NCBI GenBank assembly: GCA_963703345.1
Contig: OY969814.1
Coordinates: 1,024,001-1,088,000 of the forward strand
Origin: an uncultured Chloroflexia bacterium
GTDB lineage: Bacteria > Chloroflexota > Dehalococcoidia > DSTF01 > JALHUB01
DNA length: 64,000 nucleotides
Reading direction: 5' to 3'
Each line of letters begins with the position of its first letter. Positions within the stretch are counted from its first letter, which is position 1. The notes beneath the pieces were generated by a model. It saw only the letters and a program-made list of their open reading frames with translations, made no database searches and was not told the DNA's origin. Below are positions 1,572 through 40,578 of this stretch, piece after piece. The translations under genes were made by a program, and so were the position numbers.

Positions 1572-1600
1572 TTGTCGCAGCCGCCGCCGTCTGATAGGAT
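1572..1600 (+). promoter_or_regulatory. Sigma70-like promoter upstream of the tRNA-Pro 5' half
   Basis: TTGTCG-17bp-TAGGAT, 9 nt before the tRNA-like sequence. Confidence 0.5.
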
Positions 1601-1609
1601 TCCAGCGGT

Positions 1610-1644
1610 TGGGGCGTAACGCAGCCCGGTAGCGCACGTGAATG
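1610..1644 (+). tRNA. Degenerate 5' half of tRNA-Pro (fragment, ends in the anticodon loop)
   Basis: TGGGGCGTAACGCAGCCCGGTAGCGCACGTGAATG. The acceptor 5' strand complements CGCCCCG of the downstream 3' halves, it has a Pro-type D-arm, and it breaks at the anticodon. Confidence 0.7.
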
Positions 1645-1781
1645 CGGGGTATCCCCGAGAATGCAAGCTAGTTAGGTGCACGCCCCAAGTCTGATTTCGT
1701 ATCTAAGACCCTTGCGAAGCCAGTCTATTTGGGCGCACTCATGAGAACAGGACTCATTGACGCTGGCGCTACGATCTTTCT

Positions 1782-4522: not shown

Positions 4523-4570
4523 TGGAGCGGGAAACGGGACTCGAACCAGTGACCCTCTGCTTGGGAAGCA
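4523..4570 (-). tRNA. 3' half of tRNA-Gly(CCC), fragment
   Basis: Reverse complement TGCTTCCCAAGCAGAGGGTCACTGGTTCGAGTCCCGTTTCCCGCTCCA. Confidence 0.8.
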
Positions 4571-4619
4571 AAGGCTGCAGCCATCGCCGTCTTGAGACTC
4601 AAGCGGGAACCAGAAAGCC

Positions 4620-4852
4620 TTGACCGACCGCGACCGGCACGTCACAATAGCGCTGCCTGGCGTCGCGCCGTATCAGCTACGAGCTGAGCAGCGGAAGATT
4701 CAGGAGAGACACTCGGCCTAGCCAGATTCTGCACCTGAATCTTCTCCAAGGACGGCCGCCGGCAGATTCGGAATCGGCGCTTTCGGCTGGATTCCCGACC
4801 TGATTGATGGGGTTCAGGAGGTCGTGGGTTCGAATCCCACCGCCCCGACCAG
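4620..4852 (+). repeat. Copy 1 of ~230-bp direct repeat (promoter-like boxes, hairpins, tRNA-Pro 3' half)
   Basis: High identity to 10322-10554, read by eye. Confidence 0.9.
4807..4851 (+). tRNA. 3' half of tRNA-Pro(GGG), att-like fragment, copy 1
   Basis: ATGGGGTTCAGGAGGTCGTGGGTTCGAATCCCACCGCCCCGACCA; begins exactly at the anticodon loop. Confidence 0.85.
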
Positions 4853-4935
4853 TTTCCCTACAAACTGGCACAGAACAGCCCATCATCGGGGTGGCGAATC
4901 GGTTACGAACTGACGACGCCGTGGGCTTCGCCAGC

Positions 4936-6543
4936 CTAGACTTGCGAACCCTTTCGCTGATCCGGGTTGGGGCGGCGTCCTATGCGGCGCGCGATGTCGG
5001 CGGCGAAATTAGCGGCTGTTCCCACGACGCCGCGCTGGTGGGGGATGGGGCGCATCGCGTTCGACAGTTCCGGGTGCTTCTCGGCGTAAGCCCGCACCTC
5101 CTCCAGCGTCACGCCGTAGGCGTCGAGCACGCGCTGCAGCTCCCCACGGGCCTTGTCTTTCGCCTCCTGCAGCTTCATCTGCACCCGGCTCTTGACCAGC
5201 ACCTCGCCGTCTCCTGTCGTCTCGATGGGGATAAAGACCGTGTCGGCCAGGTCGCTCACCACCTTCGCCTGGACGCCATCGCTGATCGTACTGGGCATGC
5301 AGCCGAAAGGCTTGATGGAGATCATCATGTGAGCCTTGGCGTGTCGCACCATGTATATGTGCTTGGTGACCTCCAAGTGACCCTCGCCAGCGATGAGGCG
5401 CTTCTCGTAGTAGCCTTCGGAGTAGCGGTCGAGCATGTCCATCGCTGGGAAACCCTGCGGCTTCATATTCATGATGGCGCGGTAGAAGGTGTAGAGGATC
5501 TCCCCGAAGTGCTTGCCTACACGGAGTCCGAACCAGATGAGCCAGGGGTTGGCCGTGCCCATCCCCTGCGGGTCTGACTTGACGAAGAGGCGGTCCCGCA
5601 CCTTGAGCTCGTTGAGCCAGATCATGTACTCGAACCAGGCCCCGACCGTGTCCAGCATCACCTCGGCGCCCTCGTCCTCCAGCCAGTGCAGGAGACGGTG
5701 GTTCGACTCGTCCTCCGCGTGCTTGAGGAAGAACTCGCCGGTGACCTTCACCCGTGGCTTGACCCTCAGGTAATCGACCTCGATGCGGCCGAGCTTGACC
5801 CTGATAGCCGCCATCGTCTTCGAGATGGAGAGCCCTTCTCTTGCTGCCACACGCAACATCTCGCGGGCCTCCGCCAGCGCCCTGTCGGTTGCCCCGGGGA
5901 CGACCTCGTAGGGCCGGATCTGGCAGGCGAGGTCGCCCAGGAGGTCGGCGGCGATCGCCACCTTGGCGAGGCGCCAGAACACCTTGGGCGTCATCTGCAC
6001 CCCCGCCGACTCCTGATTGATGTCGAGGCCGTGGGCGATATCCAGCATCGCGATCCGGAAGTTGGGGAAGCCGGCCGCCTTGAGCGCCTTGCGCATGTCC
6101 GCCTCGTACATCCCCATCCGGCAGGGCCCGCAGTCGCTGGCCCAAAGGAGGGCAAAGCGCTCTTCGATCTCGCTGTCGGACAGCCCTTCCCGCCGTCGCT
6201 CGAATAGGAACTTGAGCAGGGTGCCGATCGTGTAGTAGGTGGGGTTGCACTGCCCGCGGTTACAGAACTCCTTGCCGATGGCGAGCGACTCCTGATCAGG
6301 GCTGGGAAGTCGCTGCGCTTTGTAGCCGAGCCCCTCCAGCAACCCCAGAAGCACCTCCTGGAGAGTGGCGGGAAGCGCGCAAAAGACGATGGTCGTCTCG
6401 GCCTTGCTTATCGGCGTGCAGGGTTCGGCGGGCCGCTTGAAATGGCGTACCTTCGGTCCCTCGACGCCCATCTCCTGGACGAGAGCGCGCCGGAAGGCCT
6501 CAACCTCCGCCTCGATCTCAGCCACTGACTCTATCGTGGACAC
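4936..6543 (-). CDS. 2-hydroxyacyl-CoA dehydratase-like / CoA-activase partner protein
   Basis: GQCNP, CGPCRMGMY, TGEFF, GEGHLEV and KPFGCMP motifs; overlaps the upstream activase gene. Confidence 0.8.
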   Translation of the reverse strand: MSTIESVAEIEAEVEAFRRALVQEMGVEGPKVRHFKRPAEPCTPISKAETTIVFCALPATLQEVLLGLLEGLGYKAQRLPSPDQESLAIGKEFCNRGQCNPTYYTIGTLLKFLFERRREGLSDSEIEERFALLWASDCGPCRMGMYEADMRKALKAAGFPNFRIAMLDIAHGLDINQESAGVQMTPKVFWRLAKVAIAADLLGDLACQIRPYEVVPGATDRALAEAREMLRVAAREGLSISKTMAAIRVKLGRIEVDYLRVKPRVKVTGEFFLKHAEDESNHRLLHWLEDEGAEVMLDTVGAWFEYMIWLNELKVRDRLFVKSDPQGMGTANPWLIWFGLRVGKHFGEILYTFYRAIMNMKPQGFPAMDMLDRYSEGYYEKRLIAGEGHLEVTKHIYMVRHAKAHMMISIKPFGCMPSTISDGVQAKVVSDLADTVFIPIETTGDGEVLVKSRVQMKLQEAKDKARGELQRVLDAYGVTLEEVRAYAEKHPELSNAMRPIPHQRGVVGTAANFAADIARRIGRRPNPDQRKGSQV

Positions 6544-9500
6544 GTCCCCCTCCTACCAGAAGTATCTCTTCCTGCAGACGCTTGCGATAGCTCGCCACCC
6601 GCCGCTCGATCTCCTGCTCTGTCTCACGGCGACGTTGCATATCCTCCAGCCGACGGCGGAGGAAATAGTCGATCGTCTCCACCCGCAGCTTGATGGAGCC
6701 GACCGGCCGGTTCTCGTCGAGGTCATGGAAGGCGAAGTAAGGCGTACCGGCCGCCTCGAGTATCCCTTCGATCACGTGGTAGATAGGGGAGTCGAGGCCG
6801 CACTTGAAGGAGGAGAAATCGATACCGGCCAGGTTGGGATGGCGAGCGACGAACTTCGCCGCCCAGACCTTGCGGCTGGTGTTCTCGCTGAAGGTATGTT
6901 TCCAGACATCGTGGATGTCCCGGGGGTCGCCGATCTCCCCCCAGCGCACCTCCTCGCCGAAGAGCCGGTCGAGGATATCATCGTCCATGGGCAGCGAGTC
7001 GATGGTGAAGACGGGGTATCCCAGCCGCTGGATCAGCTCCGGTATGTCGTGATTCACGCCCGGGTCGTTGTGGTAGGGGCGACCAAGCAGTACTATCCCG
7101 AGACGGCCCTCGTCCTCGAGCCGGTCGAGGACCTCCCGCGCCCGTCTCCTCAGGCTGCCGCGGAACGCTGCCAGCGCTCGGTAGCCCTCCCGCATCGCCG
7201 CCGCATTCTCCTCCGGGCTCACGCCGAGGATCGGGCGGACGAAGGTCAACATCTGCTGCTCGAAAAGGTTGGGCTCGGCCATGTGGAGCACGGGGGCGTA
7301 GAAGCAAGCTCCTTTCTCGGCGAAGGCGTCTTTCTCCGTGGTGAAGGCAGCCTTTACCACCTCCGGTATCCCCTGCACCGTGGGACAACTCCAGCCTGCC
7401 TGGCACTCATAGATGTCACTGGGCACGTTCATCATCTCCGGGAAGAACACAATGTCCGGCTGCTTCTTGGTGAGGAGGTTGTGAACGTGGGAGACAGCGA
7501 TCTTCGCCGGGTAACACGGGTCGATGGAGCCGCGCCGCGAGCCCTCGCGGAACATCTGGTCGTCCGTGTAGTCGGACCAGAGGATGTTGCGATGCAGCAC
7601 GCCTAGGCTCTCCAGATACGCGGTGAAGAACGGGGCATAGGAGTACATGGTGAGCAGCCGTGGGATGCCGATGCGCACCGTCGCCCGCCGCTCCCGCAGC
7701 CGCGCCACCGTCCCGCTGCCGTCCCAAACCGACAGGAAGCGCCGGCCGCTGCCGTTGGTGGCAGCGACGCTCTGCGGCGAGTAGCTGTGGAACGCCTCGC
7801 GGGCGGCGATCTCGATGAAGTTGGGGTTCGCCTTCTTCACCGCATTCTCGCGGGTGTTGAAGACCCTCACCGCGTCGATGCTCTCCGCCATCCCTCGCTC
7901 GCAGGTGGCGGAGATGAAGCGGGTCGTGTGTTCGGGCGAGGTCCTGATGTCGACGAAAGTGCGGAGGCACTTGTTCTTGCAGAACGAGCAGCGGGTCGAT
8001 TCGTCGCGGGTGGTGGTGAAGGTGAGCGCCTCCACCCGGTCGAACCCGATGAACGAGCTCTCCCCGCCGTCGCTCACGCGGATCGCCTCGCTGGCAGCGC
8101 CGAGGGCGCCGCTCTCACCGGCGTGCGGATGGACGTGGATCTTCGCGTCCGGCACGCGAGCCTTGATGAAGTCGTACTGCGCCTTGACCACGGCGAGGTT
8201 GTAGTGCGTCCCTCCCTGCAGGAGGAAGGTCTTGCCGAAGCGGGCCAGGTTCGTCTCCTGGACGACGTAGAGCCAGACGTTCTTGGGCAGGGTGAGAGCA
8301 AGGCCGGCCATGATCTCGGACGGCTGCCAGCCGAGCTGCTGGAAGTGCGAGATGTCCTGCTCCAGGAAGACGGCGCAACCGTAGTGAAACGCCGGCGCCC
8401 GCTCGGCGCTGAGGGCGACATCGGCCCACTGATTGAGGTCGTAGCCGAAGCGGGCGGTCGTGCTCTGGAGGAAATAGCCGTTGCCGGCCGAGCACTGCGT
8501 GTTGAGCTTGAAATCCTTGACGGCGCCCGCCTTCATGATGATGACCTTGATGTCCTGCCCCCCAACGTCGGCGATGACGTCCACGTCGGGGTAGTAGCGG
8601 AGGGCGGACCGGGCGTGGGCGACTGTCTCCGGGATCGCCAGGTCGGCGCCGAGCGCCTCCTTCAGTAGGTCCTTGGCGTAGCCCGTCGTGGCCATGCCGA
8701 GGATGCGCAGGCGCGCGCCCTGCCCCTCCACCTGGCGGCGCAGCTCGCCCAGTATCTCCTTGGCATCCTGGAGCGGGTTACCTTTGCAGAGCTGGTAGGC
8801 CTTCGCCAGCAGATTGCCTCCAACGTCCGTGAGGACGGCCTTCGTCGAGGTTGAACCGCCGTCCAGCCCCATGTATGCTTCCACAACCTGGCCGGGCGAG
8901 AAGGCGAGAGGGGTGAACGGTTTAGTGCCGTAAAGACGGCGGAACTCCTCGAGGTCTTCGCCGGGGGCGAGAGGACCCCGCTGGCCGGTGTGCTGCTTCG
9001 CCTTCCGCCGACCGAGGTCGATGTACTCCTCCAGCGCCGCCGTCCCGGCGTAAGTGCCGGCGAGTCCCTCCTCCTGCTGGCCGTAGAGAGCCGTCCCCAA
9101 GGCGGCATAGTACAGGGAGTGCTCCGGCACAACGATTAGCTCCTCGGCGGTGGAGCCGGCGGGCAGCGCCAGCCCCCGTTCCTCCCAGAGGCGCGGCACA
9201 TGTCGCCGCCATGCCTCCTGCAGACAGGGGAAGAAGGTGTTGGGGCCGCCCAGGAGGAGCACCTTGGGGCGCAGAACGTTGCCGCGGGTGAGCACGCTGA
9301 GGTTCTGCTGGACAATCGCCTCAAACAGGGAGACCATCAGATCCTCGGGGGGGACGCCCTGCTTCTGAAGGCTGTTCATATCGGTCTCCGCGAAGACGCC
9401 GCACTTGCCGGCGACGGGGTACACCTTCGCGCTGGCATACCGCATTTCCCGGAGCTGCGCCGGGCTCAGGTGCAGCTTCGCCGCGATGCGGTCGATGACA

Positions 9501-10000
9501 GCGCCCGTGCCGCCGGCGCACTTATCGTTCATGTTGGCGAGCTTCCGCTTGCGGCCCGTCTTCGGGTCCTCCCGCCAGATGATGATCTTGGCGTCCTGCC
9601 CTCCCAACTCGATGACTGAGCCCACGTCCGGCTGCAGTGCCTCCGCGGCCAGGGAGACGGCGTTGACCTCCTGCACGAACCGCGCCCCAATGTGAGGGGC
9701 GAGCGTCGCGCCGCCGCTTCCGGTGACGAAGATGCGGAACTGCTCGACGGGCAAGAGGAAGCGCTCTTCTATCTCCTTGAGGACCTCGAGGACCTTCTCC
9801 GGCTGGCACGTCTCATGGAGGCGGTAGTCGGCGCAGAGGATCTCCTTGCTGTCGGGCGCGACGACCACGTACTTGACGGCTGTCGAGCCAACGTCAAGCC
9901 CGATGATGAGCTCGCAGTGAGACGAGCCGTCGCCGTCCTGATGCGGTGTCAAGACCGAGGACGACAAAGCATGTGTGGTACCGTCACCCTCAACCTCCAA
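6518..10000 (-). CDS. CoA-substrate-specific enzyme activase (two BadF/BadG/BcrA/BcrD ATPase domains + DUF2229-like)
   Basis: GLDVGST and GLDGGST, GGQDAK/GGQDIK, CAGGTG/CSAGNG, DPCYPAK and GRPYH motifs. Start codon uncertain. Confidence 0.9.
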   Translation of the reverse strand: MEVEGDGTTHALSSSVLTPHQDGDGSSHCELIIGLDVGSTAVKYVVVAPDSKEILCADYRLHETCQPEKVLEVLKEIEERFLLPVEQFRIFVTGSGGATLAPHIGARFVQEVNAVSLAAEALQPDVGSVIELGGQDAKIIIWREDPKTGRKRKLANMNDKCAGGTGAVIDRIAAKLHLSPAQLREMRYASAKVYPVAGKCGVFAETDMNSLQKQGVPPEDLMVSLFEAIVQQNLSVLTRGNVLRPKVLLLGGPNTFFPCLQEAWRRHVPRLWEERGLALPAGSTAEELIVVPEHSLYYAALGTALYGQQEEGLAGTYAGTAALEEYIDLGRRKAKQHTGQRGPLAPGEDLEEFRRLYGTKPFTPLAFSPGQVVEAYMGLDGGSTSTKAVLTDVGGNLLAKAYQLCKGNPLQDAKEILGELRRQVEGQGARLRILGMATTGYAKDLLKEALGADLAIPETVAHARSALRYYPDVDVIADVGGQDIKVIIMKAGAVKDFKLNTQCSAGNGYFLQSTTARFGYDLNQWADVALSAERAPAFHYGCAVFLEQDISHFQQLGWQPSEIMAGLALTLPKNVWLYVVQETNLARFGKTFLLQGGTHYNLAVVKAQYDFIKARVPDAKIHVHPHAGESGALGAASEAIRVSDGGESSFIGFDRVEALTFTTTRDESTRCSFCKNKCLRTFVDIRTSPEHTTRFISATCERGMAESIDAVRVFNTRENAVKKANPNFIEIAAREAFHSYSPQSVAATNGSGRRFLSVWDGSGTVARLRERRATVRIGIPRLLTMYSYAPFFTAYLESLGVLHRNILWSDYTDDQMFREGSRRGSIDPCYPAKIAVSHVHNLLTKKQPDIVFFPEMMNVPSDIYECQAGWSCPTVQGIPEVVKAAFTTEKDAFAEKGACFYAPVLHMAEPNLFEQQMLTFVRPILGVSPEENAAAMREGYRALAAFRGSLRRRAREVLDRLEDEGRLGIVLLGRPYHNDPGVNHDIPELIQRLGYPVFTIDSLPMDDDILDRLFGEEVRWGEIGDPRDIHDVWKHTFSENTSRKVWAAKFVARHPNLAGIDFSSFKCGLDSPIYHVIEGILEAAGTPYFAFHDLDENRPVGSIKLRVETIDYFLRRRLEDMQRRRETEQEIERRVASYRKRLQEEILLVGGGRVHDRVSG

Positions 10001-10212
10001 GATCTGCCCGCGATGCCGTCCCCAGAAAAGGATGAGCCCCGCCGGCGTAAGACGCGCTGTAGAGTGGAAGCTCGGCTCCTGCGATCTCTAATAATACCAG
10101 TGACCCCCTTCAAGAGCGCTACCCCAGTCTATGTTAGTGCGACCACCACCCCAAGCCGTAACGAGTCGGAGCATCTGCTCGGGAATCGGATGGTTGCCGC
10201 GTCGGAAACGCG

Positions 10213-10238
10213 AAAGGCTGGGCAAAATGCCCAGCCTT
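10213..10238 (-). terminator. Intrinsic terminator-like hairpin downstream of the tRNA-Gly fragment
   Basis: AAGGCTGGGC-AAAAT-GCCCAGCCTT; related hairpins lie at ~4478-4503 and 38607-38632. Confidence 0.55.
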
Positions 10239-10257
10239 GCCTCTGTATGTCAACGGC

Positions 10258-10294
10258 GGAGCGGGAAACGGGACTCGAACCCGCGACCCTCTGC
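10258..10294 (-). tRNA. 3' fragment of tRNA-Gly, copy 2
   Basis: GGAGCGGGAAACGGGACTCGAACCCGCGACCCTCTGC on the plus strand; matches the other Gly fragments. Confidence 0.75.
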
Positions 10295-10321
10295 CCGGAA
10301 TCAGCTGCCGCACGCATCTTC

Positions 10322-10554
10322 TTGACTGGCAGCAGCCAGCACGCCACAATAGCGCTGCCTGGCGCCGCGCCGTATCAGCTACGAGCTGAGCAGCGGAAGA
10401 TTCAGGAGAAACACTCGGCCTGGTCAGATTCTCCGCCTGAATCTTCTCCAATGGCGGCCGCTGGCAGATTCGGGATCGGCGCTTTCGGCGGGATTCCCGC
10501 CCTCAATGATGGGGTTCAGGAGGTCGTGGGTTCGAATCCCACCGCCCCGACCAG
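10322..10554 (+). repeat. Copy 2 of ~230-bp direct repeat
   Basis: High identity to 4620-4852. Confidence 0.9.
10509..10553 (+). tRNA. 3' half of tRNA-Pro(GGG), copy 2
   Basis: Identical 45-mer to 4807-4851. Confidence 0.85.
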
Positions 10555-10690
10555 AATGAAATCAGAGGGTCGCTTTCGAAGCTGGAGAAAAGGCAGCGCG
10601 GCTCTTTTTAGGTGGACGCACCAACGCCTAACGAGTGGGTTCAGGAGGTCGGTCTGGCAAAGGCGACCTCCTGAATGGTATCGGACCAGA

Positions 10691-10715
10691 TCACATTACG
10701 TCACACCTGCTCACA
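10691..10715 (+). repeat. Helically phased TCACA direct repeats (10-bp period)
   Basis: TCACA at 10691, 10701 and 10711; homologous array at 16982-17016. Confidence 0.65.
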
Positions 10716-10998
10716 GCTTGTCTCGCGCCTGAACACCAGAGAAGCGCGATAAGGTGTCAGGCGATAGTAAGAGTTGCTACTTGCCCACCCTCATCCGCCC
10801 CTGCAGTTGACCTCGGTTGTCTCTCTGGCCTCGGTGGGTCGCTTGTGTGGTGGCCCTCTTCTTGTCGCAGTCCTCCAACGAGGACTAGCCCATTTCCACC
10901 TCAGGGGGCAAACCCGGCGCCTCCCCCACCGGGGTGACACGAACCGCTTTACGTCTCAAGCGGCCGAGAGATAGGCTGGCGATTGCTTATCAAGAGAG

Positions 10999-12663
10999 AT
11001 GATGGACACCTCAGGCACACAGTCGCAGTGCGCCGCCCGGTACTACCTTGTGAGCGAACAGAGAACGAGCCTCAGAAACCACAGAGGCCTCCTGCGCCTT
11101 CGAGGGCGAGGCCGCCTGCTGTCGTTGCTCGAGATGCCGGCCATCCTCACCCGACTGAACGTCGCGCCCGATGGACGCTTCGTTCCCGAGATGCAGGATT
11201 GGGAGTCTTTCTGGGCACCGGCGCATGAGCTAGCCAACCCGCAGATCGATCACGTCCTGGAGAGGCTTCACGCTTCCTGGCAGGACTACATCCGATCTCG
11301 CTTCGACCGATCGCTGCAGCGGGAGTACTGCCTCTGGTACTTCTCCCTCCTGGATCTCATCTTGGCGACGCCCGTTGGCCGGCGGGATTCCCTCCCCTGG
11401 CAGCGGGCGCTACGGGCCGTCGTGGGCTTCGAGTGTTTCGGCATAAGGGCACCAGCCCTCGGCGCGGAGGCTCTGGCTGCGGGCACGATGACCCTTCGCA
11501 ACCCCTGTTACGTCCTTGCCAAGCTCAGATGGCCGGACGCCTTGGACGATACCCAGTTCCTTCCCCTCATCGGCCCACCACACGGCAAGCCTGCCAGCCT
11601 CTACTACCACTACCGGCAGTACCGGCTCTCAAAGGATTCACCTATGTCGCTTCTTCTGTATGTGGCGGCCGCTCCCACGCATCGCTTGACGAGCTTCAGA
11701 CTCGTTGAGTCGTTGGCGCGGGGCGTCAGTTCAGGCGGCGATCCTCGCACTGGGCAGCGGGCGCGACGCCTGTGGGAGAAGGTTCTCAGGCCGATCGTCC
11801 AAACTGCCCGCACCGATGCAACGACAGCAATGCCCGTTGAGTTAGTTGACGTCGGCGCGGGCAGTGGCGCCCTGACCGCTGCTCTCTGCCATAGGCTCCT
11901 GGCCTGGGGCGTGGCAAACGGACTCTTGCCTCGGCTTCGCGTATGGTTTGTGGACTTGTGCCTCTCCGACCCGGCGCGGTTCTTTCGGGCCGCTGGCCTG
12001 AGAAACCGCATCGACAGTCTGACGTTCCTGGGCGACGACTATCGCCGTTGGCTGGCGCGGCCGGGGCCGCTGCCCGAATCCTCAGGTATTCGAGTGGCGC
12101 TAATCTCGAAGCTCTTCAACAACTTGAGCCGTTTCTCAGTTTGCCGTTGTCGCACAGATGTGCTATCCTCCTCGTCAACTGGCACACCGTTCATCGACGG
12201 GCGAAGGCACCTGCCGTCTTTCTGTTTGGCGCCCGACGGTGCGGGTCCGGAGGCTCTCGTGATCTCCACTTCACGCCTTGGCTTGGCTGAGGGCCGGACC
12301 TTTGCCCAAGCCTCACTCTCAGACTACTACCGTGCGCTCCAGCTGGCGCTCGCGGACGGCAAAGAGGAGGAGGTATCGGAGGACGGAGCCTGGCTGCCAC
12401 TGAGGGCCCTCGATCCTGGATGCCTCATCGCCGCCGACGGGACGAGTGTACTCGCGCGGCTCTTGGAGCACTGCGACTACCTCATCGTTGAGGACGCCGA
12501 TCTGAGGCCGAAGGACATCGTCAAACACCTGCGAGCGTTCTCGCTGGATGGGCTGGCCGCCCTTGACATGACCAAGACGCTGGGCCTCATCGGGAACCAC
12601 GCATACCTACTCTCAAGCAAGGGTGAAAAGAAGACTTCACTACCGGGGGAGCGAATATGGTAG
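10999..12663 (+). CDS. Hypothetical protein with a class I SAM-dependent methyltransferase-like C-terminal region
   Basis: LVDVGAGSG motif I followed by WFVD (acidic end of strand 2); N-terminal half not recognised. Confidence 0.65.
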   Translation: MMDTSGTQSQCAARYYLVSEQRTSLRNHRGLLRLRGRGRLLSLLEMPAILTRLNVAPDGRFVPEMQDWESFWAPAHELANPQIDHVLERLHASWQDYIRSRFDRSLQREYCLWYFSLLDLILATPVGRRDSLPWQRALRAVVGFECFGIRAPALGAEALAAGTMTLRNPCYVLAKLRWPDALDDTQFLPLIGPPHGKPASLYYHYRQYRLSKDSPMSLLLYVAAAPTHRLTSFRLVESLARGVSSGGDPRTGQRARRLWEKVLRPIVQTARTDATTAMPVELVDVGAGSGALTAALCHRLLAWGVANGLLPRLRVWFVDLCLSDPARFFRAAGLRNRIDSLTFLGDDYRRWLARPGPLPESSGIRVALISKLFNNLSRFSVCRCRTDVLSSSSTGTPFIDGRRHLPSFCLAPDGAGPEALVISTSRLGLAEGRTFAQASLSDYYRALQLALADGKEEEVSEDGAWLPLRALDPGCLIAADGTSVLARLLEHCDYLIVEDADLRPKDIVKHLRAFSLDGLAALDMTKTLGLIGNHAYLLSSKGEKKTSLPGERIW

Positions 12664-13628
12664 ACGTCATCAGGGCGGGCCGCAGGTCGGCGGTCCTGAC
12701 GCCGTCCGACCTCCCTTGCCTCTCGACGATCCCAACCATCAACCTCACCGCCGGCTGTCTCCACGGCTGCGCCTACTGCTACATCCGCGGCTACAGCACG
12801 TTCCCCGGCGAGGGTCGGGTGGTCCTGTACGAGAACACGCTGGAGAAGCTCCAGCATGAACTTGTGCGACGGCGGGCGAAACCGCGTGCGGTCTACTTCA
12901 GCCCCTCCAGCGACCCCTTCCAGCCAGCACCGGAGGTTCTCGAGCTCGCCCGGGCGGTGCTTGCGTTTCTGCTCAGGGAGGGGATCGGCGTTGCCTTCTT
13001 GACCAAGGGCCGCATTCCCGACAATATAATGCGGCTTCTCGTCGAGCACGCCGAGTTGGTGCGGGCCCAGGTCGGCATCACCACCTTGGACGACGCTGTC
13101 TCGCGGGCGTTCGAGCCCAACTCCGCCAGCCCCGAACAACGCCTGGCGCAGATGCAGGCGCTCATCGCCGCCAACGTGCCGACGGAGGCGCGGCTCGACC
13201 CTGTCCTGCCGGGTCTGACGGACGACCCGCGGTCGATGGATCGCCTCTTCGCCGCCCTGACCCGGATCGGCGTCAGGCGGGCGGCGGCGAGCGTGCTCTT
13301 CCTCAGACCGGCCATCGTGCAATCTCTTCGATGGAACGTGCCCGACAAGGAGATGCTGGCGCGGCTCCTCAGCGCCTACCAGGGGAGCGAGCGTATAGGG
13401 CTCCGCGGCACCGGATCACACGTCCAGACGCTGCCGTCCGCGGTCAGAGGCGAACTCTTCGCGCGGATGCGGGAGATAGCGTTGGCGCACAGCATCGAGT
13501 TGAGTATCTGCGCCTGCAAGAACCCTGACCTGGCGAGCGGCTCCTGCAATATCGCCGGCAGATGGCCCAAGCAGGAGGCCTGGTCCGTTCAGCCTGTCCT
13601 TGCAGGTGAGTTTGCCAGCAGGCAGTGA
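12657..13628 (+). CDS. Radical SAM protein, spore-photoproduct-lyase-like family
   Basis: GCLHGCAYCY (CxxxCxxC), SSDPFQP, LTKG, FEP and PVLPGLTD motifs; start overlaps the upstream stop. Confidence 0.9.
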   Translation: MVDVIRAGRRSAVLTPSDLPCLSTIPTINLTAGCLHGCAYCYIRGYSTFPGEGRVVLYENTLEKLQHELVRRRAKPRAVYFSPSSDPFQPAPEVLELARAVLAFLLREGIGVAFLTKGRIPDNIMRLLVEHAELVRAQVGITTLDDAVSRAFEPNSASPEQRLAQMQALIAANVPTEARLDPVLPGLTDDPRSMDRLFAALTRIGVRRAAASVLFLRPAIVQSLRWNVPDKEMLARLLSAYQGSERIGLRGTGSHVQTLPSAVRGELFARMREIALAHSIELSICACKNPDLASGSCNIAGRWPKQEAWSVQPVLAGEFASRQ

Positions 13629-13640
13629 AAAGGTGAACGC

Positions 13641-14274
13641 ATGCTTCAGGATATCCCTATTGATAGCCTTGTCGCCCATCCTGACAACAGCAACCACATG
13701 AGCACCGAGATGCTCAAGAAGCTGCGTCGGCATATCGAACGGACGGGAAGATACGAGCCGCTGACTGTCCGCCCGCACCCGAGCGCGGAGGACAAGTATG
13801 AGGTTCTCAACGGTCACAACCGGCTGCGCGTCCTTCGGGCTATCGGACGAAACTCGGCGTGCTGTGTCGTGTGGGATGTCGACGACTCCCAGGCCAGGCT
13901 CTATCTCGCCACACTCAACCGCCTCGCCGGCAGCGATACTCCGGAACGGCGGGCGGCTCTTCTGGAGAACCTTCTAGGCACCTTCGATATGACGGAGCTT
14001 TTGGGGGTTGCTCCCTGATAGTCAACGCCAAATCGAGGAGCTCCAGCGGCTGTCACGCCTGGACACAGAAGAACTCATCTCTTCCGGCATGACTGACAGA
14101 GACGAATCTGGCGTGCCCGTTATCCTAGACTTCGTTCTGGAGGAGTCCGAGGCCAAGGAAGTGAACCTCGCCCTGGACATGGTCCGAGCCCCTGAAGGAC
14201 AGAGCATCTCCAGCGGCCAGGCGCTTGTCCGGCTCGCACGCTTCTATCTCGCTGGCTGCAAGCCAAGCTGCTGA
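13641..14274 (+). pseudogene. ParB/Srx N-terminal-domain protein split by a 1-nt insertion in the G run at 14003-14007
   Basis: HPDNSN, PLTVR, YEVLNGHNRLR and LNRLAG motifs. Dropping one G gives ...TELLGLLPDSQRQIEEL..., joining ORFs 13641-14018 and 14008-14274. Could be a sequencing error. Confidence 0.75.
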
Positions 14275-14317
14275 GAGTAGGCCGCCGCTCCATGCTCCCA
14301 ATCTGAGGCAGGCTTCT

Positions 14318-14716
14318 ATGGGGAACGACCACTTTTCAGAGCTGCTGCGGCACTTCAAGCGGAGTGAGGCTCCCGAGGCCGTCCTCCTCGTAGCCGACGA
14401 CCCAACGCTTACCAAGATCGTCGTGGCATGGAACAATCTTGACCTACGGCCGGGCAAGAAGCCTAGGCGATCCCCCGGAGAGTCGGAGCATGACCAGTGG
14501 GACTGGCTCTGGGCCAACGTCAGCTATTCCCTCGAGGACTTGGCCGAGAGAAGCGGTCTCACTGTCGCTCTCATCGAGCGGAAGCTTAAGCCGCTCATCG
14601 GGAACCGCATTCTGTATCCCGACGGTTCTGTGAACTCGTTCGTGCAGCGGTATCTGCGGGAACGGGTACTCAAGCTGTTCGATGCGAAACCGAGGAAGCC
14701 GGCCAAAACCGGTTGA
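14318..14716 (+). CDS. Hypothetical protein, possible winged-HTH C-terminus
   Basis: Same strand as the operon. YSLEDLAERSGLTVALIERKLKPL is HTH-like. Start taken at ATG 14318. Confidence 0.65.
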   Translation: MGNDHFSELLRHFKRSEAPEAVLLVADDPTLTKIVVAWNNLDLRPGKKPRRSPGESEHDQWDWLWANVSYSLEDLAERSGLTVALIERKLKPLIGNRILYPDGSVNSFVQRYLRERVLKLFDAKPRKPAKTG

Positions 14717-14968
14717 CACTCTTCACAACGGCCGCAGGCGCCATTCCGCCAGCGCAGTACCTACGGCTGTTTGCTCGATCCGCTGTGTCTGACCTACAAG
14801 CACATGCGGCCGGAGGACTCAGCCCATCTCATTAGTCTACGCCACCCTCGCCACAATCCGTGGCTGGCCGACTAACCGCCCCGCCGCGGATTTGCGGGTC
14901 ACACCAGGAATACAGGCGGCGGGGGCAGCTACGGACAGCGTTTTGCCTCCACACCTCTGGCGCCCCAC

Positions 14969-15002
14969 TTGCATGTCATCGGAATGTCAAATATAGTTTG
15001 AC
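14969..15002 (+). promoter_or_regulatory. Sigma70-like promoter with palindromic operator for abiEi
   Basis: TTGCAT-17bp-TATAGT. GTCAAA-N5-TTTGAC spans the -10. The ATG is 7 nt after the -10, so the mRNA is probably leaderless. Confidence 0.7.
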
Positions 15003-15004
15003 CT

Positions 15005-15643
15005 ATGAGTGACATCAATGCCGCATCGCGCACCCGCCGACCTGCTTCCCAACCGGATCGCGCCCGACTCTTCGATATCGCTTCAGAGCAGGGTGGCTAC
15101 TTCACGGCTGAGCAAGCCCGGGTTTCTGGTTTTAGCCGATCACTTGTCTCGCATCACGTGAAGAGCGGCCGGTTCATCAGAGTACGTCGGGGACTGTATC
15201 GCTTTCGTGAGTATCCGGCGTCGCCGCGTGAGCACGTGCTCGCCGCGTGGCTCGCAGTAGGGAAGGACGTAGCCGTCGTCTCGCACGAAAGCGCACTTGA
15301 CCTGCTCGACCTCAGCGACGTGATACCGGATGCGGTACACCTTACTGTTCCTCGGTCGCGGCGCAACGTCCTCACGCTCCCCGGTGTGAAGGTCCACACC
15401 ACTGCTCGATCACCAAGGTCGGAAGACGTTGTCGTGCGCGATGGTATGGCCATCACCTCGGCCACGCGCAGCATCCTCGACGCAGCCGAGATGGGGACAG
15501 CACCGGAGCAGCTTGAGATGGCTGTCATTCAGGCGATTGAGCGCGGCCTGGCCACCCCGCGACAACTGCGGCAGGATGCCGTAGCGCGCGGACGGCGAGT
15601 GGCAACACTGATCGAGGAAGCGCTTCGCAGGTTTCGGCAATGA
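15005..15643 (+). CDS. abiEi: Type IV toxin-antitoxin AbiEi-family antitoxin
   Basis: QGGYFT, RVRRGLYR, VVSHESAL and VHLTVP motifs; ATGA overlap with the next gene. Confidence 0.88.
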   Translation: MSDINAASRTRRPASQPDRARLFDIASEQGGYFTAEQARVSGFSRSLVSHHVKSGRFIRVRRGLYRFREYPASPREHVLAAWLAVGKDVAVVSHESALDLLDLSDVIPDAVHLTVPRSRRNVLTLPGVKVHTTARSPRSEDVVVRDGMAITSATRSILDAAEMGTAPEQLEMAVIQAIERGLATPRQLRQDAVARGRRVATLIEEALRRFRQ

Positions 15644-16524
15644 AATACGCCACTCCCGGCGCATTCCGTAGGGCTCTCGAACAGTGACTCCTGACGATGG
15701 CCAGGGAGACAGATGTCCCACTGATGCGGCTGCGCAAGCTCGTTGTCTTCGACCGCTTGATGGCGCGCCTGGTGGTCGTGGCTCCGAACCGCTGGGTCGT
15801 CAAGGGTGCGGCGGCCCTCCTCTTTCGCCTGGGAGCCAGGTCTCGCACCACGAAAGACCTCGATCTCGGGCGCCAAGATAACGAGGAGGCGGCAACGGCC
15901 GACTTTCTTGCAGCACAGTCGCTCGATCTTGGTGACCACTTCACGTTTGCCATCGAGCGCACGAAGAAGCTGGACGCGATGCTGGAAGGTGTCGCGGTGC
16001 GGTACCACGTTGTCGCAGAGTTCGGCGGGCGCGTGTTTGAGGACGTGACGGTCGACGTCGGCTTCGGGGATCCCGTCGTCGCTGATCCAGAGCTCGTGCG
16101 CGGACCAGATCTACGGAGCTTCGCGGATATCCCTCCCGCCGAAGTGCCGGCGTTGCCTCTGGAACAGCATGTCGCCGAGAAGATTCATGCCTACACCCGG
16201 AGCTACGTCGGCGGCCGCCCGAGCACCCGTGTCAAGGACCTTCTCGACCTCGCCATGATGGGGTCGCTCTTCAGCTTCCAGGCTGGCCGCCTGCGGCGAG
16301 CCCTTGAGGCCACGTTTGCTGCTCGTGATACCCATCTGCTGCCATCTGTGCTTCCTGCGCCACCGCCCCAGTGGGGTGTTGCGTACCGAAGGACGGCTAC
16401 CGAGGTCGGTTTGGACTCTGACATGTCGATGGGGTACGAGCAGGCGGCGGCGTTTCTCAATCCGATCTTGGCGGGGACAACTCCATCTGATGCCCGATGG
16501 GATCCCGTGCAGCGTACCTGGTAG
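15640..16524 (+). pseudogene. abiEii: AbiEii-family nucleotidyltransferase toxin with a premature TGA at codon 16 (possible restart at 15697)
   Basis: MKYATPGAFRRALEQ*LL; KGAAAL (usually KGG), RTTKDLDL, AEKIHA and STRVKDLLDL motifs. Confidence 0.85.
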
Positions 16525-16804
16525 TAGGAGGGGTCACGAGACGGCATGGAGTAGTAGGATAAGGCCTCGCCTCAGACACGAGAATGGGCCCGATAGCGCC
16601 GTCCAGGATCACACGGGAGGACTTGCGCCGAACTTCAAAACCTTGGGTATCGCTTCTTGGCCAGCGCCGCCTGCCCCTTGCACAATATGCTGAAATAGCT
16701 AGAATTAGCTCGAATTAGGTGCGGCGCGACCGCCTGAATAGGCGCCGAAGGCGGTCCGCATCGAATCTGAAAAGGCCGGTTTCGCCTCGAAACTCAGCCT
16801 CCAA

Positions 16805-16849
16805 ATGGGGTTCAGGAGGTCGTGGGTTCGAATCCCACCGCCCCGACCA
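16805..16849 (+). tRNA. 3' half of tRNA-Pro(GGG), copy 3
   Basis: Identical 45-mer; shares downstream GAATGAAATCAG with copy 2. Confidence 0.85.
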
Positions 16850-16863
16850 GAATGAAATCAGGA

Positions 16864-16905
16864 GGTCGGTTTCGAGGCTAACAGCCCGCGAAACCGACCG
16901 TTTTT
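16864..16905 (+). terminator. Intrinsic terminator after the tRNA-Pro 3' half
   Basis: GGTCGGTTTCG...CGAAACCGACC stem followed by GTTTTT. Confidence 0.7.
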
Positions 16906-16981
16906 GCGTTCCTCCAAGGCCGCCTGTAATCAGGAGGTCGCTTCCACAAGCAGGCAGCCTCCGGAGGATCGTCTCACCACA

Positions 16982-17040: not shown

Positions 17041-17091
17041 TTCGGTTTCCTAAACCGAAGGGCGCAGGTTCGAGTCCTGCCGGGAGTATCA
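17041..17091 (+). tRNA. tRNA-Arg(CCT) fragment/pseudogene
   Basis: Anticodon arm TCGGT-TTCCTAA-ACCGA, T-arm GCAGG-TTCGAGT-CCTGC, degenerate end ATCA; weak D-arm-like traces upstream. Confidence 0.75.
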
Positions 17092-17094
17092 CAC

Positions 17095-17220
17095 CCGAAT
17101 GGATTGTCGGCACACTACAGCGCCGGATCGTCGCTCTACCGGTTCTCGGTGGCCTTCACCACGAGTACGATTGGGTGGCCGCTTGAGGTACGCAGATGGA
17201 TCCAATATTGTTCCCTCACA
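17095..17220 (+). mobile_element. Internally deleted IS remnant (transposase C-terminus + terminal IR)
   Basis: Encodes IVGTLQRRIVALPVLGGLHHEYDWVAA, similar to the 30535-31566 C-terminus; ends ...ATTGTTCCCTCACA. Confidence 0.8.
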
Positions 17221-17326
17221 GGGTGCGGCATGAGCCGCCCGCAGCTCGGATCGGGGTCCTTCGACCCCACAACGGTCTGCGCAGGCCTTAGCGTGGATCT
17301 GAGATAAGCATGCGAACGCCCTGGAA

Positions 17327-23031: not shown

Positions 23032-23112
23032 TCTGTCCGCATCCCCCCGTCCTCGAAGGTGGTGGCTCACCTAGGCACGTTAGGGCCCCTTGTGGCGGGC
23101 AAAGGGGATCCC

Positions 23113-26100
23113 ATGGACAGCAGGACGCTTCCAGCGGCCAAAGTTACGGGCAAGATGCCTTCCGAAGCCTCAGGCGGGCGGATTAGGCGCCGATTCCTCG
23201 CGCCCTTGCGATTCCGCATTTCGGCTTCATCCACGCGCGGGCGGCTGCACATAGCCGCGGCGCTCGTGCTCGCGCTGCTGGCGGGGATCCTGCTCACCGA
23301 CGGCGCCGCCGCGGCCACACCCACCCCCGACGCCACCTCCATCCCCACACCCACCCCCGTCGCCACCTCCATCCCCACACCCGCACACGAGGGCACCATC
23401 GTGACCCTTGACACCGTAGGAGATGTGGGCCAGTACACCTCGCTGAAGCTGGACGCCGGCGGCAGGCCCGTGGTCAGCTACTACGACGCCACCAAAGGCG
23501 ACCTGAAGGTGCTGCACTGCGGCTATGCCGATTGCTCCGCCGGCAACGTCATCACCTCTCCCGACACGGCGGGCGATGTGGGCCGGTACACGTCGCTGGT
23601 TCTGGACGCCGCCGACAAGCCGGTAGTCAGCTACTACGACGTGACCAACGGCAACCTGAAGGTGCTCCACTGCGGCAACGCCAACTGCACGGCCGGGGCC
23701 GGCAACGTCATCACCTCTCCCGACACGGCAGGCGATGTGGGCCAGCACACCTCGCTGGTGCTGGACGCCGCCGGCTTCCCGGTGGTCAGCTACGACGACG
23801 TGACTAACGGCAACCTGAAGGTGTTGCACTGCGGCAACGCCAACTGCACCGCCGGCAATAGCATCAGCTCTCCCGATACGGCACCGCTGGTCGCCACCGT
23901 AGCGGCCGGAACTCACCCCTGGGGCGTTGCCGTCAACCCCAGCACGAACCGCATCTACGTGGTGAACGAATACAGCAACAACATCTCCGTCATCGACGGC
24001 GCCGGCAACACGGTCGTCGGCACCCCCGTACCGGTCGGGAGTTACCCCTTAGGCGTGACCGTCAACCCCACCACGAACCGCATCTACGTGGCAAACAGTG
24101 GCAGCAACAACGTCACCGTCATCAACGGCGCCACCAACACCGTCGTCGGCACCCCCGTGCCGGTCGGGAGTCACCCTGTAGGCGTGGCCGTCAACCCCAG
24201 CACGAACCGCATCTACGTGGCGAACTCGCACGACAACAACGTCTCCGTCATCGACGGCGGCAGCAACAGCGTCGTCGGCACCCCCGTGCCGGTCGGGAGT
24301 TGGCCCGAGGGCGTGGCCGTCAACCCCAGCACGAACCGCATCTACGTGTCGAACGATAACAGCAACAACCTCACCGTCATCGACGGCGCCACCAACACCG
24401 TCGTCGGCACCCCCGTGCCGGTCGGGAGTTGGCCCGAGGGCGTGGCCGTCAACCCCAGCACGAACCGCATCTACGTGGCGAACTATGGCAGCAACAGCGT
24501 CTCCGTGATCGACGGCGCCAGCAACACGCTGGTCGGTACCCCCGTACCGGTCGGCACTAACCCCGGCGACGTGGCCGTCAACCCCAGCGCGAACCTCATC
24601 TACGTCGCGAATGAGGGCAGCAACAACGTCACCGTCATCGACGGCGCCAGCAACACCGTCGTCGGCACCCCCGTGCCGGTCGGGAGTTCCCCCGAGGGCG
24701 AGGGCGTGGCCGTCAACCCCAACACGAACCTCATCTACGTGGCGAACTACAGCAGCAACAACGTGTCCGTCATCAATGGCGCCAGCACCGGCGATGTCGG
24801 CCAGCACACCTCGCTGGTTCTGGACGCCGGCGGCAACCCTGTGGTCAGCTATTACGACAGCACCAACGGCGACCTGAAGGTGCTGCACTGCGGCAACGCC
24901 AACTGCACCGCCGAACCCGTCAGCCAGGTCAGTGCGGGCGACATGCACACCTGCGGGGTGAAGACGGACGGCACCCTGGCCTGCTGGGGGGCCAACACCG
25001 TCGGGCAGGCGAGCCCACCCGCCGGCACCTTCAGCCAGGTCAGCGCGGGCGGTGGTTTCACCTGCGGCGTGAGGACGGACGGCACCCTGGCCTGCTGGGG
25101 GGTCAACAACTTCGGGCAGACAAGTCCCCTCCCCGCCGGCACCTTCAGCCAGGTCAGCGCGGGCACTTTCCACACCTGCGCGGTGAAGACAGACGGCACC
25201 CTAGCCTGCTGGGGGCACAACGGCAACGGGCAGGCGAGCCCACCCGCCGGCACCTTCAGCCAGGTCAGCGCGGGCGGTTTCCACACCTGCGGGCTCAGGA
25301 CGGACGGCACCGTGGCCTGCTGGGGGTGGTACGACGACTATGGGCCGCCGACGGCCCCCGCCGGCACCTTCAGCCAGGTCAGCGCGGGCTACGGTCACAC
25401 CTGCGGGGTGAAGACGGACGGCACCCTGGCCTGCTGGGGGGACGACACCTACCACCAGACGGAGGCCCCGGGCGGCACCTTCAGCCAGGTCAGCGCGGGC
25501 TGGGGCCACACCTGCGGGGTGAAGACGGACGGCAGCCTGGCCTGCTGGGGGGACAACAGCTACGGGCAGTTGAACAACATCCCCACCGGCACCTTCAGCC
25601 AGGTCGACGCGGGCGGCTATCACACCTGCGGGGTGAAGACGGACGGCACCCTGGCCTGCTGGGGGTGGAACGCCTACCCCCAGGCGACGCCCCCCGCCGC
25701 CGACAGCATCACCTCTCCCGATACGGCAGGCGATGTGGGACAGTACACCTCGCTTGCCCTGGACGCCGGCGGCAACCCCGTGGTCAGCTATTTCGACGAG
25801 AACAACGGCTACCTCAAGGTGCTGCACTGCGCCGACGCCGGCTGCACCGCCGGCACCTTCAGCCAGGTCAGCACGGGCTACGAGTTCACCTGCGGAGTGA
25901 AGACGGACGGCAGCCTGGCCTGCTGGGGGGACAACTCCTACGGGCAGACGGCGCCCCTCCCCACCGGCGCCTTCAGCCAGGTCAGCGCGGGCCTCTATCA
26001 CACCTGCGGGGTGAAGGCGGACGGCAGCCTGGCCTGCTGGGGATGGAACAACTACGGGCAGTCAACACCGCCCGACGGCGCCTTCACCCAGGTTAGCGCG

Positions 26101-28188
26101 GGTACACGTCACACTTGTGGGGTGAAGACGGATGGTACGCTGGCCTGCTGGGGGTGGAACCTCTACGGGCAGGCGCCTCCATCGCCCTTCCCCAACGACA
26201 CCTTCAGCCAGGTCAGCGCGGGCGGCGACTACACCTGCGGACTGAAGACGGACGGCAGCCTGGCCTGCTGGGGGATCAACAACTTCGGGCAGTTGAACAA
26301 CATCCCCACCGGCACCTTCAGCCAGGTCAGCGCGGGCGGCGACCACACCTGCGGGGTGAGGACGGACGGGACCCTGGCCTGCTGGGGATACAACTACTAT
26401 GGGCAGGCGACACCACCCAGCGGCACCTTCAGCCGGGTCAGCGCGGGCGACGTGCACACCTGCGGGCTGAGGACGGACGGCACCCTGGCCTGCTGGGGGT
26501 GGAACGCCTACGGGCAGTCAACGCCCCCCGCCGGCACCTTCAGCCAGGTCAGCGCGGGCTTAGAGTACACCTGCGGGTTGAGGACGGACGGGACCCTGGC
26601 CTGCTGGGGGTGGAACCAGGCGACGCCCCCCGCCGCCGACAGCATCACCTCTCCCGACACAACAGGCAACGTGGGCCAGTACACCTCGCTCGCGCTAGAC
26701 ACCTCAGGCAACCCCGTGGTCAGCTACTACGAGGCCCCCGACGGCGGCGGCGGCCTGAAGGTGCTGCACTGCGGCGATGCCGACTGCGCCACCGGCAACA
26801 GCATCACCTCCCCCGACACAACAGGCGATGTGGGCGAGTACACGTCGCTGGCCCTGGGCGCCGGCGGCTACCCCGTGGTCAGCTACTACGACCACAACAA
26901 CGGCGACCTGAAGGTACTGCACTCCGACACCCCGACCGGCGGGCCGCCCATCATCAGCACCATGGCCGGCAAAAACGGCACAGCAGGCTTCGTTGACGGC
27001 GCCACAGCAGACTCGCGGTTCGACTCCCCGCATGGCATGACAGAATCGGCGGATGGAAACCTCCTGGTAGCCGACACGAGTAACGACGCGATCCGCAAGA
27101 TAGACGCTGCGACGGGGAGCGTCAGCACCGTCGCCGGTATCCCGCCGGGCGGCAGCGCTGGCTGCGTGGGCCACACGTCGCCGCCCTACGACGGCTGTCT
27201 GGCGATAAACGCGACTCTCTCTGCACCTAGGGATGTCTTCGATCTAAACCCGCCGGGTGACACCTACATTGCGGATACGGGCGACAACCGCATCCGCAAG
27301 GTAGACGGAGCGGGCGTCATCACCACCGTCGCCGGCAACGGTACCCCAGGGTACACCGGAGACGACGTTCTGGCGACTGCTACCGAACTGAACGGCCCCA
27401 GCGGCGTCGCCGTCGACTCCGCAGGCAACATCTACATCGCCGATACGGGGAACAACCGCATCCGCAAGGTAGACGCGGCAACCAGCATTATCACCACCAT
27501 CGTCGGCAACGGCAGCGGCTGTGACGCGAACCACACAGCGCCTTACGATGGCTGCCTGGCGACTCAAGCCACGCTCAGCAGCCCACGCGACGTTTTTCCC
27601 TGGGGCTCAATGTACGCGGGAACGACCGACCTGCTCATCGCCGACACGGGCAACAACGTCGTCCGCTGGGTCCATGGCCCTTCCGGCCTGATCGGTACCC
27701 TTGCCGGCACGGGAAGCCCCGGTTTCTCCGGCGACGGCGTTGCCGTTCAGGTCAAGCTCGACGGCCCGGAGGCGGTGGCGTCCGATGGTTCCCTCGCTGT
27801 CCTCATCGCCGATACTCAGAACAACCGCCTGCGCCGCGTCACCTTCGGTGATGCCACCATCACCACCGTCGCCGGCGGCGGCAGCGGCTGCGATGCGAAT
27901 CAGACGGCGCCCTACGACGGCTGCCCGGCGACGGACGCTGTCCTCGATCATCCAGCGGGAGTCGCTCTCGGGAGTTGCCAGACGTCGGACACCGGCAGTC
28001 AGGCTATCCGCGGGATAGATTCCTGCACCGGGTTGCCGGTCGGCGGCTTCACCGGGTCCACGGGTTGCACATACGGCACCACTGCAACCATCGACTTGGC
28101 CTTCATGCTCTTACCCCTCGGACTAATCCTCAGCCGAAGGCGGATTCGGATTGCGTTTAGACAGATTCGGAGGGTGGGAAGGCCATGA
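23113..28188 (+). CDS. Large cell-surface multi-beta-propeller protein (YVTN, RCC1-like and NHL repeats; C-terminal TM)
   Basis: Signal-like segment; 7 YVTN-type repeats, 2x7 RCC1-like repeats, 7 '[21 protein letters not shown]' repeats, NHL repeats, then TM + basic tail. AAAGGGGA RBS before ATG 23113. Confidence 0.9.
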
Positions 28189-31660: not shown

Positions 31661-31713
31661 GGAAGGTGGGCTCGTTTTCGGGGGGCAGGTCAAGTGTCGG
31701 AACTGGAGGACGA

Positions 31714-40391: not shown

Positions 40392-40578
40392 GTCAGAAAC
40401 CTCCCTGTCGTTACCCTCCATCACGTCGACCCGGGGTGATAGGCGTAGCGCCAACCGATACACAAACGCGCTCAGCCACCCTCGCCTAGGGTATCACACT
40501 AACGAGTGAAGGCTGCAGATGGCGCCGGAACTCAGCGGCCCCACGGAATGACGACCGGTGTCTCCGCCTGGTCCTGCC

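Follow-up and report, generated by a model that had tools for sequence, protein, structure and literature searches.

Repeat units behind tRNA-Pro in an uncultured Dehalococcoidia genome are the ends of tandemly stacked DNA islands, and their hairpins are likely integrase docking sites rather than a new RNA

The window (the whole 64,000-nt stretch of DNA that was analysed) corresponds to positions 1024001-1088000 of the source genome (G000; 2.28 Mb, one contig); genomes of relatives are numbered G002, G003 and so on, and homologous loci L002, L009 and so on. An intact tRNA-Pro(GGG) gene lies 7.3 kb ahead of the window (genome positions 1016600-1016676), and a tyrosine integrase gene (PF00589) begins about 200 bp behind it, pointing away from the tRNA. 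Downstream of this intact gene and in the same orientation, the window holds three displaced 3' halves of tRNA-Pro, each including the CCA, which we found where the initial annotation had placed them (4807-4851, 10509-10553 and 16805-16849). Each half closes a repeat unit. Copies 1 (4619-4852) and 2 (10321-10554) share 91% identity across 234 nt, and copy 3 (16657-16849, plus strand) has its last 46 bases in common with copies 1 and 2.

Copy 1 starts with a predicted outward-facing sigma-70-type promoter at the element end (4620-4648, plus), which was detected by a promoter scan and is kept in homologues. The promoter boxes claimed in the initial annotation are all present: TTGACC/TTGACT-17-CACAAT at 4620-4648 and 10322-10350, and TTGGCC-18-CACAAT at 16657-16686 in copy 3. 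Further along the plus strand of copy 1 stand site A, GATTCAGG (4697-4704, 110 bp before the crossover), a likely integrase site that echoes the tRNA-Pro anticodon stem; site B, CCTGAATC (4734-4741, 73 bp before the crossover), an inverted copy of A; and site C, CAGATTC (4763-4769, 44 bp before the crossover), a likely accessory-protein site common to Pro, Lys and Gly arms. An element-side core half-site (4796-4806, plus), whose outer six bases mirror in inverted form the tRNA side of the crossover, then leads into the displaced tRNA-Pro(GGG) half (4807-4851, plus), which begins with the 7-nt anticodon loop (4807-4813), the presumed overlap region. Copy 2 (10322-10553, plus) has the promoter, A (10399), B (10436), C (10465) and the tRNA half (10509-10553), and copy 3, whose arm is of a different type and has promoter-like boxes of its own, retains site B (at about -72) and ends in the same tRNA half.

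Behind copy 1 is the truncated left end of the next element (4852-4894, plus). This element, B (4852-10508), is free of integrase genes and carries acyl-CoA dehydratase activase-type genes. Element C (10554-16804, plus) is also integrase-free, encodes radical SAM, ParB-like and AbiEi/AbiEii proteins, and has an inverted pair of the tRNA-side motif in its left end (10640 and 10664). Its genes at 10999-14716 (plus) encode a 554-aa protein without a Pfam match, the radical SAM protein, the ParB-like protein and two unknowns, the start of this cluster being common to G015; the AbiEi/AbiEii type IV toxin-antitoxin pair (15005-16524, plus) is at the end of the element. Behind copy 3, the next left end (16850-16909, plus) contains a terminator-like hairpin, and the same end is found behind the intact tRNA-Pro in G010; the terminator that had been reported here is an 11-bp hairpin and a T run 3' of the half. 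A fourth Pro half (about 1096281-1096429 of the genome, L002) has been flipped by a local inversion of about 150 bp; it has an arm of the copy-3 type on one side and the remainder of its left end on the other. In element A, a decayed copy of the tRNA-Pro promoter region and 5' half (tRNA positions 2-38) is present at 1600-1647 (plus) and resembles a captured left part of attB.

Fragments of other tRNAs are interspersed with the Pro units. An inverted tRNA-Gly(CCC) 3' half (4523-4568, minus) stands back to back with the Pro arm of copy 1, with its own Gly-type left-end arm following on the minus strand, and a second, decayed one (10257-10302, minus) precedes copy 2. Such a Gly half is found just upstream of the Pro arm in 6/20 arms with B and C, and a Lys half in 1/20 (the two window sites and L012, L014, L043, L049 and L051); judged from this arrangement, some element ends may carry att sites for two integrases. 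A tRNA-Val(TAC) 3' half (2456-2503, minus) is an att remnant of a Val-targeting family, and by eye it has the TACAAT box (2591-2596, minus) and upstream hairpin that had been described. A small unit with a DUF1330 gene (about 1900-2503, minus) stands between this half and a Val arm of the standard type whose own half is truncated. A tRNA-Arg(CCT) 3' half (17043-17091, plus; called as tRNA by ARAGORN and Rfam) lies behind GTCACA-type repeats and is an att remnant of another system.

Fragments of tRNA ends are numerous in the genome as a whole, where they form 56 clusters; among these are arrays at tRNA-Val, -Lys, -Gly and -Asn. The tidiest cassette-like array of the genome is at 1252833-1259685, where tRNA-Val(TAC) is followed by five 3' halves spaced 0.8-2.5 kb apart, each behind the same arm of about 100 bp; each unit has one or two small genes, with no match to the Pro integrase. 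A near-identical DUF1330 gene occurs in this array (1252991-1253377), there behind a Lys half. Three further Val halves are at 1919358-1921910, three copies of a tRNA-Asn 5' fragment are spaced about 100 bp apart at 1810855-1811088, and split tRNA-Ser(GCT) copies surround the intact gene at 1147895-1148968. The window also contains an insertion sequence (30498-31661) that encodes a transposase of the rve type and is bounded by 30-bp terminal inverted repeats, with remnants of it at 17122-17222 and 40577-40669; its end fragments recur beside att sites genome-wide. Other features of the window are an 18-bp tandem repeat (753-1040) within a 128-aa ORF and a 1709-aa multi-repeat protein (23059-28188) that is probably secreted. 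At the window end and continuing into L002, an 8.9-kb segment (genome 1086477-1095344) has a gene for a 2769-aa protein, which we take to be of the cyclic beta-1,2-glucan synthase type; the segment recurs in the tRNA-Pro array of G008 and also near tRNA-Pro in G001, in the opposite orientation.

The tRNA halves have the properties of island boundaries. Identity to the tRNA begins exactly at the first anticodon-loop base in 25/32 Pro halves and one base earlier in 5/32, and the loop is flanked by inverted stem sequences, as in islands of the anticodon-loop type. The start of the anticodon loop is a common crossover position of tRNA islands, subsite A (PMC4383910). The bases behind each half are those found behind an intact tRNA-Pro: after copy 1, 39/40 bases equal those behind the intact gene of G000 itself; after copy 2, 37/40 equal those in G015; and after copy 3, 34/40 equal those in G010. 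Overall, the post-half sequence is also found behind some intact tRNA-Pro for 22/31 halves (control, 0/31), and no match behind an intact gene was found for 9/31. For G015, 3050 bp of element C (89.6% identity, up to the contig end) lie directly behind the intact tRNA-Pro. We also found a near-empty site in G003 (contig C8), where about 60 bp separate the tRNA match from the flank match and tRNA-Pro is joined to flank that resumes at about 1108624 in G000. Hence, about 92 kb has accreted at this gene in G000.

Most of the accreted units lack an integrase of their own. An integrase next to its target, as is characteristic of tRNA-targeted islands, was found for the first element of the array only. 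Integrase homologues were absent from 11/11 other intervals checked (three in G000, three in G008, four in G006:C3 and one in G002), and one further G006 interval does carry a homologue; a Pfam scan of 21 chosen proteins identified no recombinase in elements B and C. The att ends are kept while integrase and transfer genes are absent (we saw no conjugation genes), which is the pattern of cis-mobilizable elements known as CIMEs, and an integrase-free unit occupies differing array positions in different genera. Hence, the repeats are the ends of small DNA islands stacked tandemly at tRNA-Pro in uncultured Dehalococcoidia, and the array is a tandem accretion of mostly integrase-free, CIME-like islands, a kind of structure that is already known.

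The integrase is closest to Xer models and scores under their cut-offs. Its catalytic residues R-K-H-R-H-Y are invariant across seven homologues. It has no domain for arm binding at its N-terminus: the core-binding domain starts about 20 residues past the ATG, and the predicted structure (mean pLDDT 76) consists of helices alone from residue 20 on and lacks a beta-sheet arm domain. Homologues stand directly behind tRNA-Pro in G004, G006 and G002 and behind tRNA-Lys in G003, and in G008 they follow two tRNA-Gly genes; a tRNA was present at 9/30 integrase-homologue loci examined.

Homologues of the Pro unit were found in 5/61 close-relative genomes. Across searches, 11 genome and 17 metagenome stretches were matched, duplicates included, and one of the 11 genome matches (Bacteroidales) was dropped as chance since it diverges right past the pattern. 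A class-wide DNA search of 301 genomes returned three: G000, G002 and one with a weak 36-nt match. Viral contigs gave 0 matches to the Pro core.

We aligned 19 units, leaving out copy 3, the flipped fourth copy and the truncated or promoterless L031, L033, L044 and L045; L083 and the G008 arms were found later. The conserved arm parts are short motifs: site A at -110, site B at -73, CAGATTC at -44 and the core half-site. All three of A, B and C are within 1 bp of these positions in 18/31 halves; 10/31 halves came via the junction pattern, which biases the loop-adjacent bases, and of the other 21 halves 11 keep the spacing. None of A-C is present in 7/31 halves, which have other arm types or are decayed. 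The motifs and their spacing are kept in two other genera, where the intervening bases diverge. The distance of the promoter varies more than those of sites A-C: its -10 box is found at -162 to -166 in most arms and, in two arms with deletions, at -155 and -96.

Were A and B copies of the core site of the integrase, one would expect the motif to track the target tRNA and to occur on both sides of the crossover, and both expectations were borne out. By one rule, we took four 7-mers per anticodon stem and counted them with the tRNA halves and 12 crossover-adjacent bases masked and with near-duplicates and metagenome loci removed. We found 87 Pro motifs in Pro arms against 4.1 expected (in 36/52 arms), 61 Gly motifs in Gly arms against 4.8 expected (27/51 arms) and 26 Lys motifs in Lys arms against 4.5 expected (16/51 arms); the homologues are kin, so arm and half counts are not independent. 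Off-diagonal counts were 3-7, except for 14 Pro motifs in Lys arms (about 3-fold enriched), an excess to which a Lys half abutting a Pro arm (L014) contributes at least in part. With motifs picked by hand, the Pro/Gly/Lys pattern was that of the uniform rule. The motif pair recurs in several left ends, where the order of the two is reversed (about +121 and +157). The initial annotation had described an invariant 11-bp stem in this region; the stem GAAGATTCAGG/CCTGAATCTTC exists at 4694/4734, and it is invariant only between copies 1 and 2, homologues keeping the inner 7 bp. Since the motif follows the Pro, Lys or Gly target stem, the 'invariant stem' is likely two inverted integrase sites, A and B.

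The third arm motif, AGATTC, stands at -43 to -45 whether the arm is of the Pro, Lys or Gly type. In addition, the 3' end of 25/45 Pro cores is spanned by CAG(A/T/C)TTC. Together with the arm copy, this makes two copies in direct orientation, 44 and 43 bp away from the centre of the crossover, and this symmetric placement suggests an accessory protein.

The initial annotation had offered a structured RNA of 160-200 nt with a T-arm/CCA end, and we weighed a corresponding alternative in which a stable RNA of about 200 nt ending in T-arm and CCA is the selected function, for example as a tRNA decoy or regulator. This alternative draws on the promoter, which is strongly conserved and faces outward in most Pro arms and in some Lys arms (see below), on terminator-like hairpins after 7/43 cores, and on part of the folding tests. 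In column shuffles, the paired cells were matched by 4/500 controls, the cells changed on both sides by 2/500 and the covariation by 18/500, so the structure scores high, and relatedness alone can beat such shuffles; 3/4 outer stem pairs show double changes, and 3/19 arms fold with z < -3. The remaining tests argue against a conserved fold. The inner seven stem pairs, the stem core, have zero double changes in 19 homologues, the covariation score (0.086) lies within that of slid controls (0.049-0.090), and the RNAalifold covariation term is -0.14. Whole-unit folding gave z of -1.28, -1.11 and -1.36 for copies 1-3, and the 5' region of 23 arms has a mean z of -0.49 in sense against -0.70 in antisense, so there is no strand preference. 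When the first 48 nt are folded locally, copies 1 and 2 have as their minimum-energy fold the three-way junction that had been proposed (z -1.1 and -0.7); it is not in the whole-unit fold, and as a conserved fold it fails, since its helices are 70, 59 and 46% paired in the 19 homologues.

Similarly, searches for a tRNA-like end or a known family did not favour an RNA. By eye, the alignment has no conserved 5' partner of the acceptor strand and thus no tRNA-like acceptor stem. At the Rfam gathering score, the one match in the window is the Arg half (17023), and by E-value the five matches in 4550-4950 are all far under threshold. A permuted tmRNA (18.5 bits against 47) and a tmRNA (12.6 against 47) were rejected as candidates, the tmRNA of the genome being located elsewhere, and a conserved 5' hairpin at the predicted start was tried and also rejected. 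The same motif pair across the crossover, in opposite order, likewise argues against an RNA, and we regard a selected RNA function as very unlikely. From sequence comparison, we read the hairpins as probable sites on DNA where the integrase of the islands docks, and not as a new RNA.

The other half of the original proposal, a folded att site whose stem echoes the anticodon stem, survives in part: the unit forms the arm of an att site on the side of the element, with a motif that repeats the anticodon stem of the target. The folding itself is a different matter. If the arm acted as folded single-stranded DNA, like the integron attC or the CTX phage attP, the A-B stem would be the substrate of the integrase, and the Xer-like character of the integrase, the 11-bp inverted repeat with its variable interior and the lack of an own integrase in most units would all be in keeping with this. 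However, the crossover is in the anticodon loop, 66 bp past site B and outside the A-B repeat, and A folded on B makes one site rather than two around a spacer. The A/B spacing is fixed relative to the crossover, whereas spacing is free in attC loops. The integrase is also not of the IntI type (TIGR02249, 54 bits against a cut-off of 265). The evidence favours double-stranded protein sites over a folded single strand; the latter we consider highly improbable.

Least probable of all is that the arms are dead scars of formerly complete islands, with copies 1 and 2 alike by recent duplication and nothing used now: the truncated left end after copy 1, the decayed Gly halves, the flipped fourth half, the frameshift in the G006 integrase homologue and the IS remnant that lies at the 3' end of the integrase in G000 fit such decay, but the motifs and spacing persist in two other genera amid divergent intervening bases and an integrase-free unit sits at different array positions in different genera. 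On origin this agrees with the island-end reading, and it differs solely on present activity.

The promoter was evaluated in the same way. The scan by itself is not significant in the window, since three promoter-like sites were found in 16 kb against 2.5 expected. Across homologues, an outward promoter-like pair was found in 24/32 Pro halves (3 inward) against 94/3000 random windows, in 9/21 Lys halves and in 4/21 Gly halves (7 inward), the inward Gly pairs being explained at least in part by Gly halves placed back to back with a Pro arm. At L059, behind an intact tRNA, and at L009/L029, behind an arm-half, the integrase begins 37 nt past the CCA, which leaves little room for a promoter of its own. 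Terminator-like hairpins were found in 7/43 left ends, including that of element A in G000, between the half and the integrase. Hence, read-through to the integrase cannot be the use of the promoter everywhere, and a short transcript may arise as a by-product. By analogy, the predicted promoter likely works like Pcirc of ICEclc; its use is the least certain step of what we propose.

We consider it very probable, from sequence comparison, that integrative elements stacked tandemly behind tRNA-Pro(GGG) have this unit as their right-hand end, and that it consists of a likely integrase-binding arm of about 190 bp and a displaced tRNA 3' half. The units are thus largely what the initial annotation had named as the outcome that would count against a novel family, the ordinary attP arm of an island. 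A circle bearing arm, half and left end (attP) would recombine into the anticodon loop, and integration would restore the tRNA gene and shift older elements downstream. The armless integrase would likely use the extra core-site copies A and B, which copy the anticodon stem, to wrap the arm, and the likely accessory-protein site CAGATTC, on either side of the crossover centre, would help the wrapping. The outward promoter would serve to express the integrase or the first cargo gene after the element has formed a circle or where it lies ahead of another one. Integrase-free units would be moved in trans or would travel in cis with a neighbour.

Several parts of this arrangement have precedents in the literature. 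Like the tRNA islands collected by Islander (PMC4383910), the array has an intact tRNA, an adjoining integrase, 3' fragments that keep the orientation of the gene, an attP region spanning about 250 bp, a crossover at subsite A and tandem arrangement; unlike them, its integrase is Xer-like and most units are without one. Since Islander, as described there, excludes Xer-class integrases and demands an integrase per island, it would likely miss most of the tRNA-Pro array. CIMEs of the ICESt1 family (PMC5704250) likewise form tandem units that keep att ends while integration and transfer genes are absent. Tandem arrays are also known from the same host class at ssrA in Dehalococcoides (PMC3146451), 15 of which are reported without integration modules; those arrays use the T-loop and the serine recombinase DsiB, whereas the present one uses the anticodon loop of tRNA-Pro(GGG) and a tyrosine integrase. 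The Pro array differs from both in that its ends often bear halves of other tRNAs and in that we saw no conjugation genes.

The promoter and the integrase also have partial counterparts. Pcirc of ICEclc (PMC5812530) is a far-end promoter that faces out when the element is integrated and sits upstream of the integrase on the circle; the Pro-arm promoter is placed alike, but it is active by prediction only, and in some left ends a terminator precedes the integrase. The simple 'arm-less' integrases Int-Brujita and Int-KX (bioRxiv 10.1101/542381) have no arm-binding domain and yet serve a mobile element, and such elements are said there to perhaps rely on other regulatory means. The Pro-array integrase is like them in domain layout, and its att sites have long arms with target-mimicking sites, of which we saw none in the available part of that account. 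The accessible text on SNJ2 (PMC5861418) describes conserved P arms and says nothing on stem mimics. Island accretion in kind and arm-less integrases on mobile elements (bioRxiv 10.1101/542381) are therefore already known from these sources. Our literature search, which covered papers outside subscription, yielded general precedents but none on an armless integrase with extra core-like attP sites or a target-mimicking arm layout, and none on tRNA-fragment arrays in Chloroflexota.

A wider reading, which we hold only tentatively and think rather doubtful, is that one Dehalococcoidia family operates an integron-like gene collection on tRNA genes. An armless Xer-like clade would have been retargeted to tRNA-Pro, -Lys and -Gly, the arms each time gaining copies of the target stem that replace lambda-type arm sites, together with a shared symmetric accessory site. 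The outward promoter carried by integrase-free cassettes would express the next cassette, and ends with two att sites would let one cassette use either tRNA.

For this organism, the analysis removes a candidate ncRNA family and accounts for the window in its entirety as belonging to accreted islands that total about 92 kb, or about 4% of the genome. If the mechanism is true, armless integrases would control direction via arms that repeat the anticodon-stem motif of their target. The Pro, Lys and Gly versions would then be a natural swap series, and the compact integrase-att pairs are possible tools for Chloroflexota.
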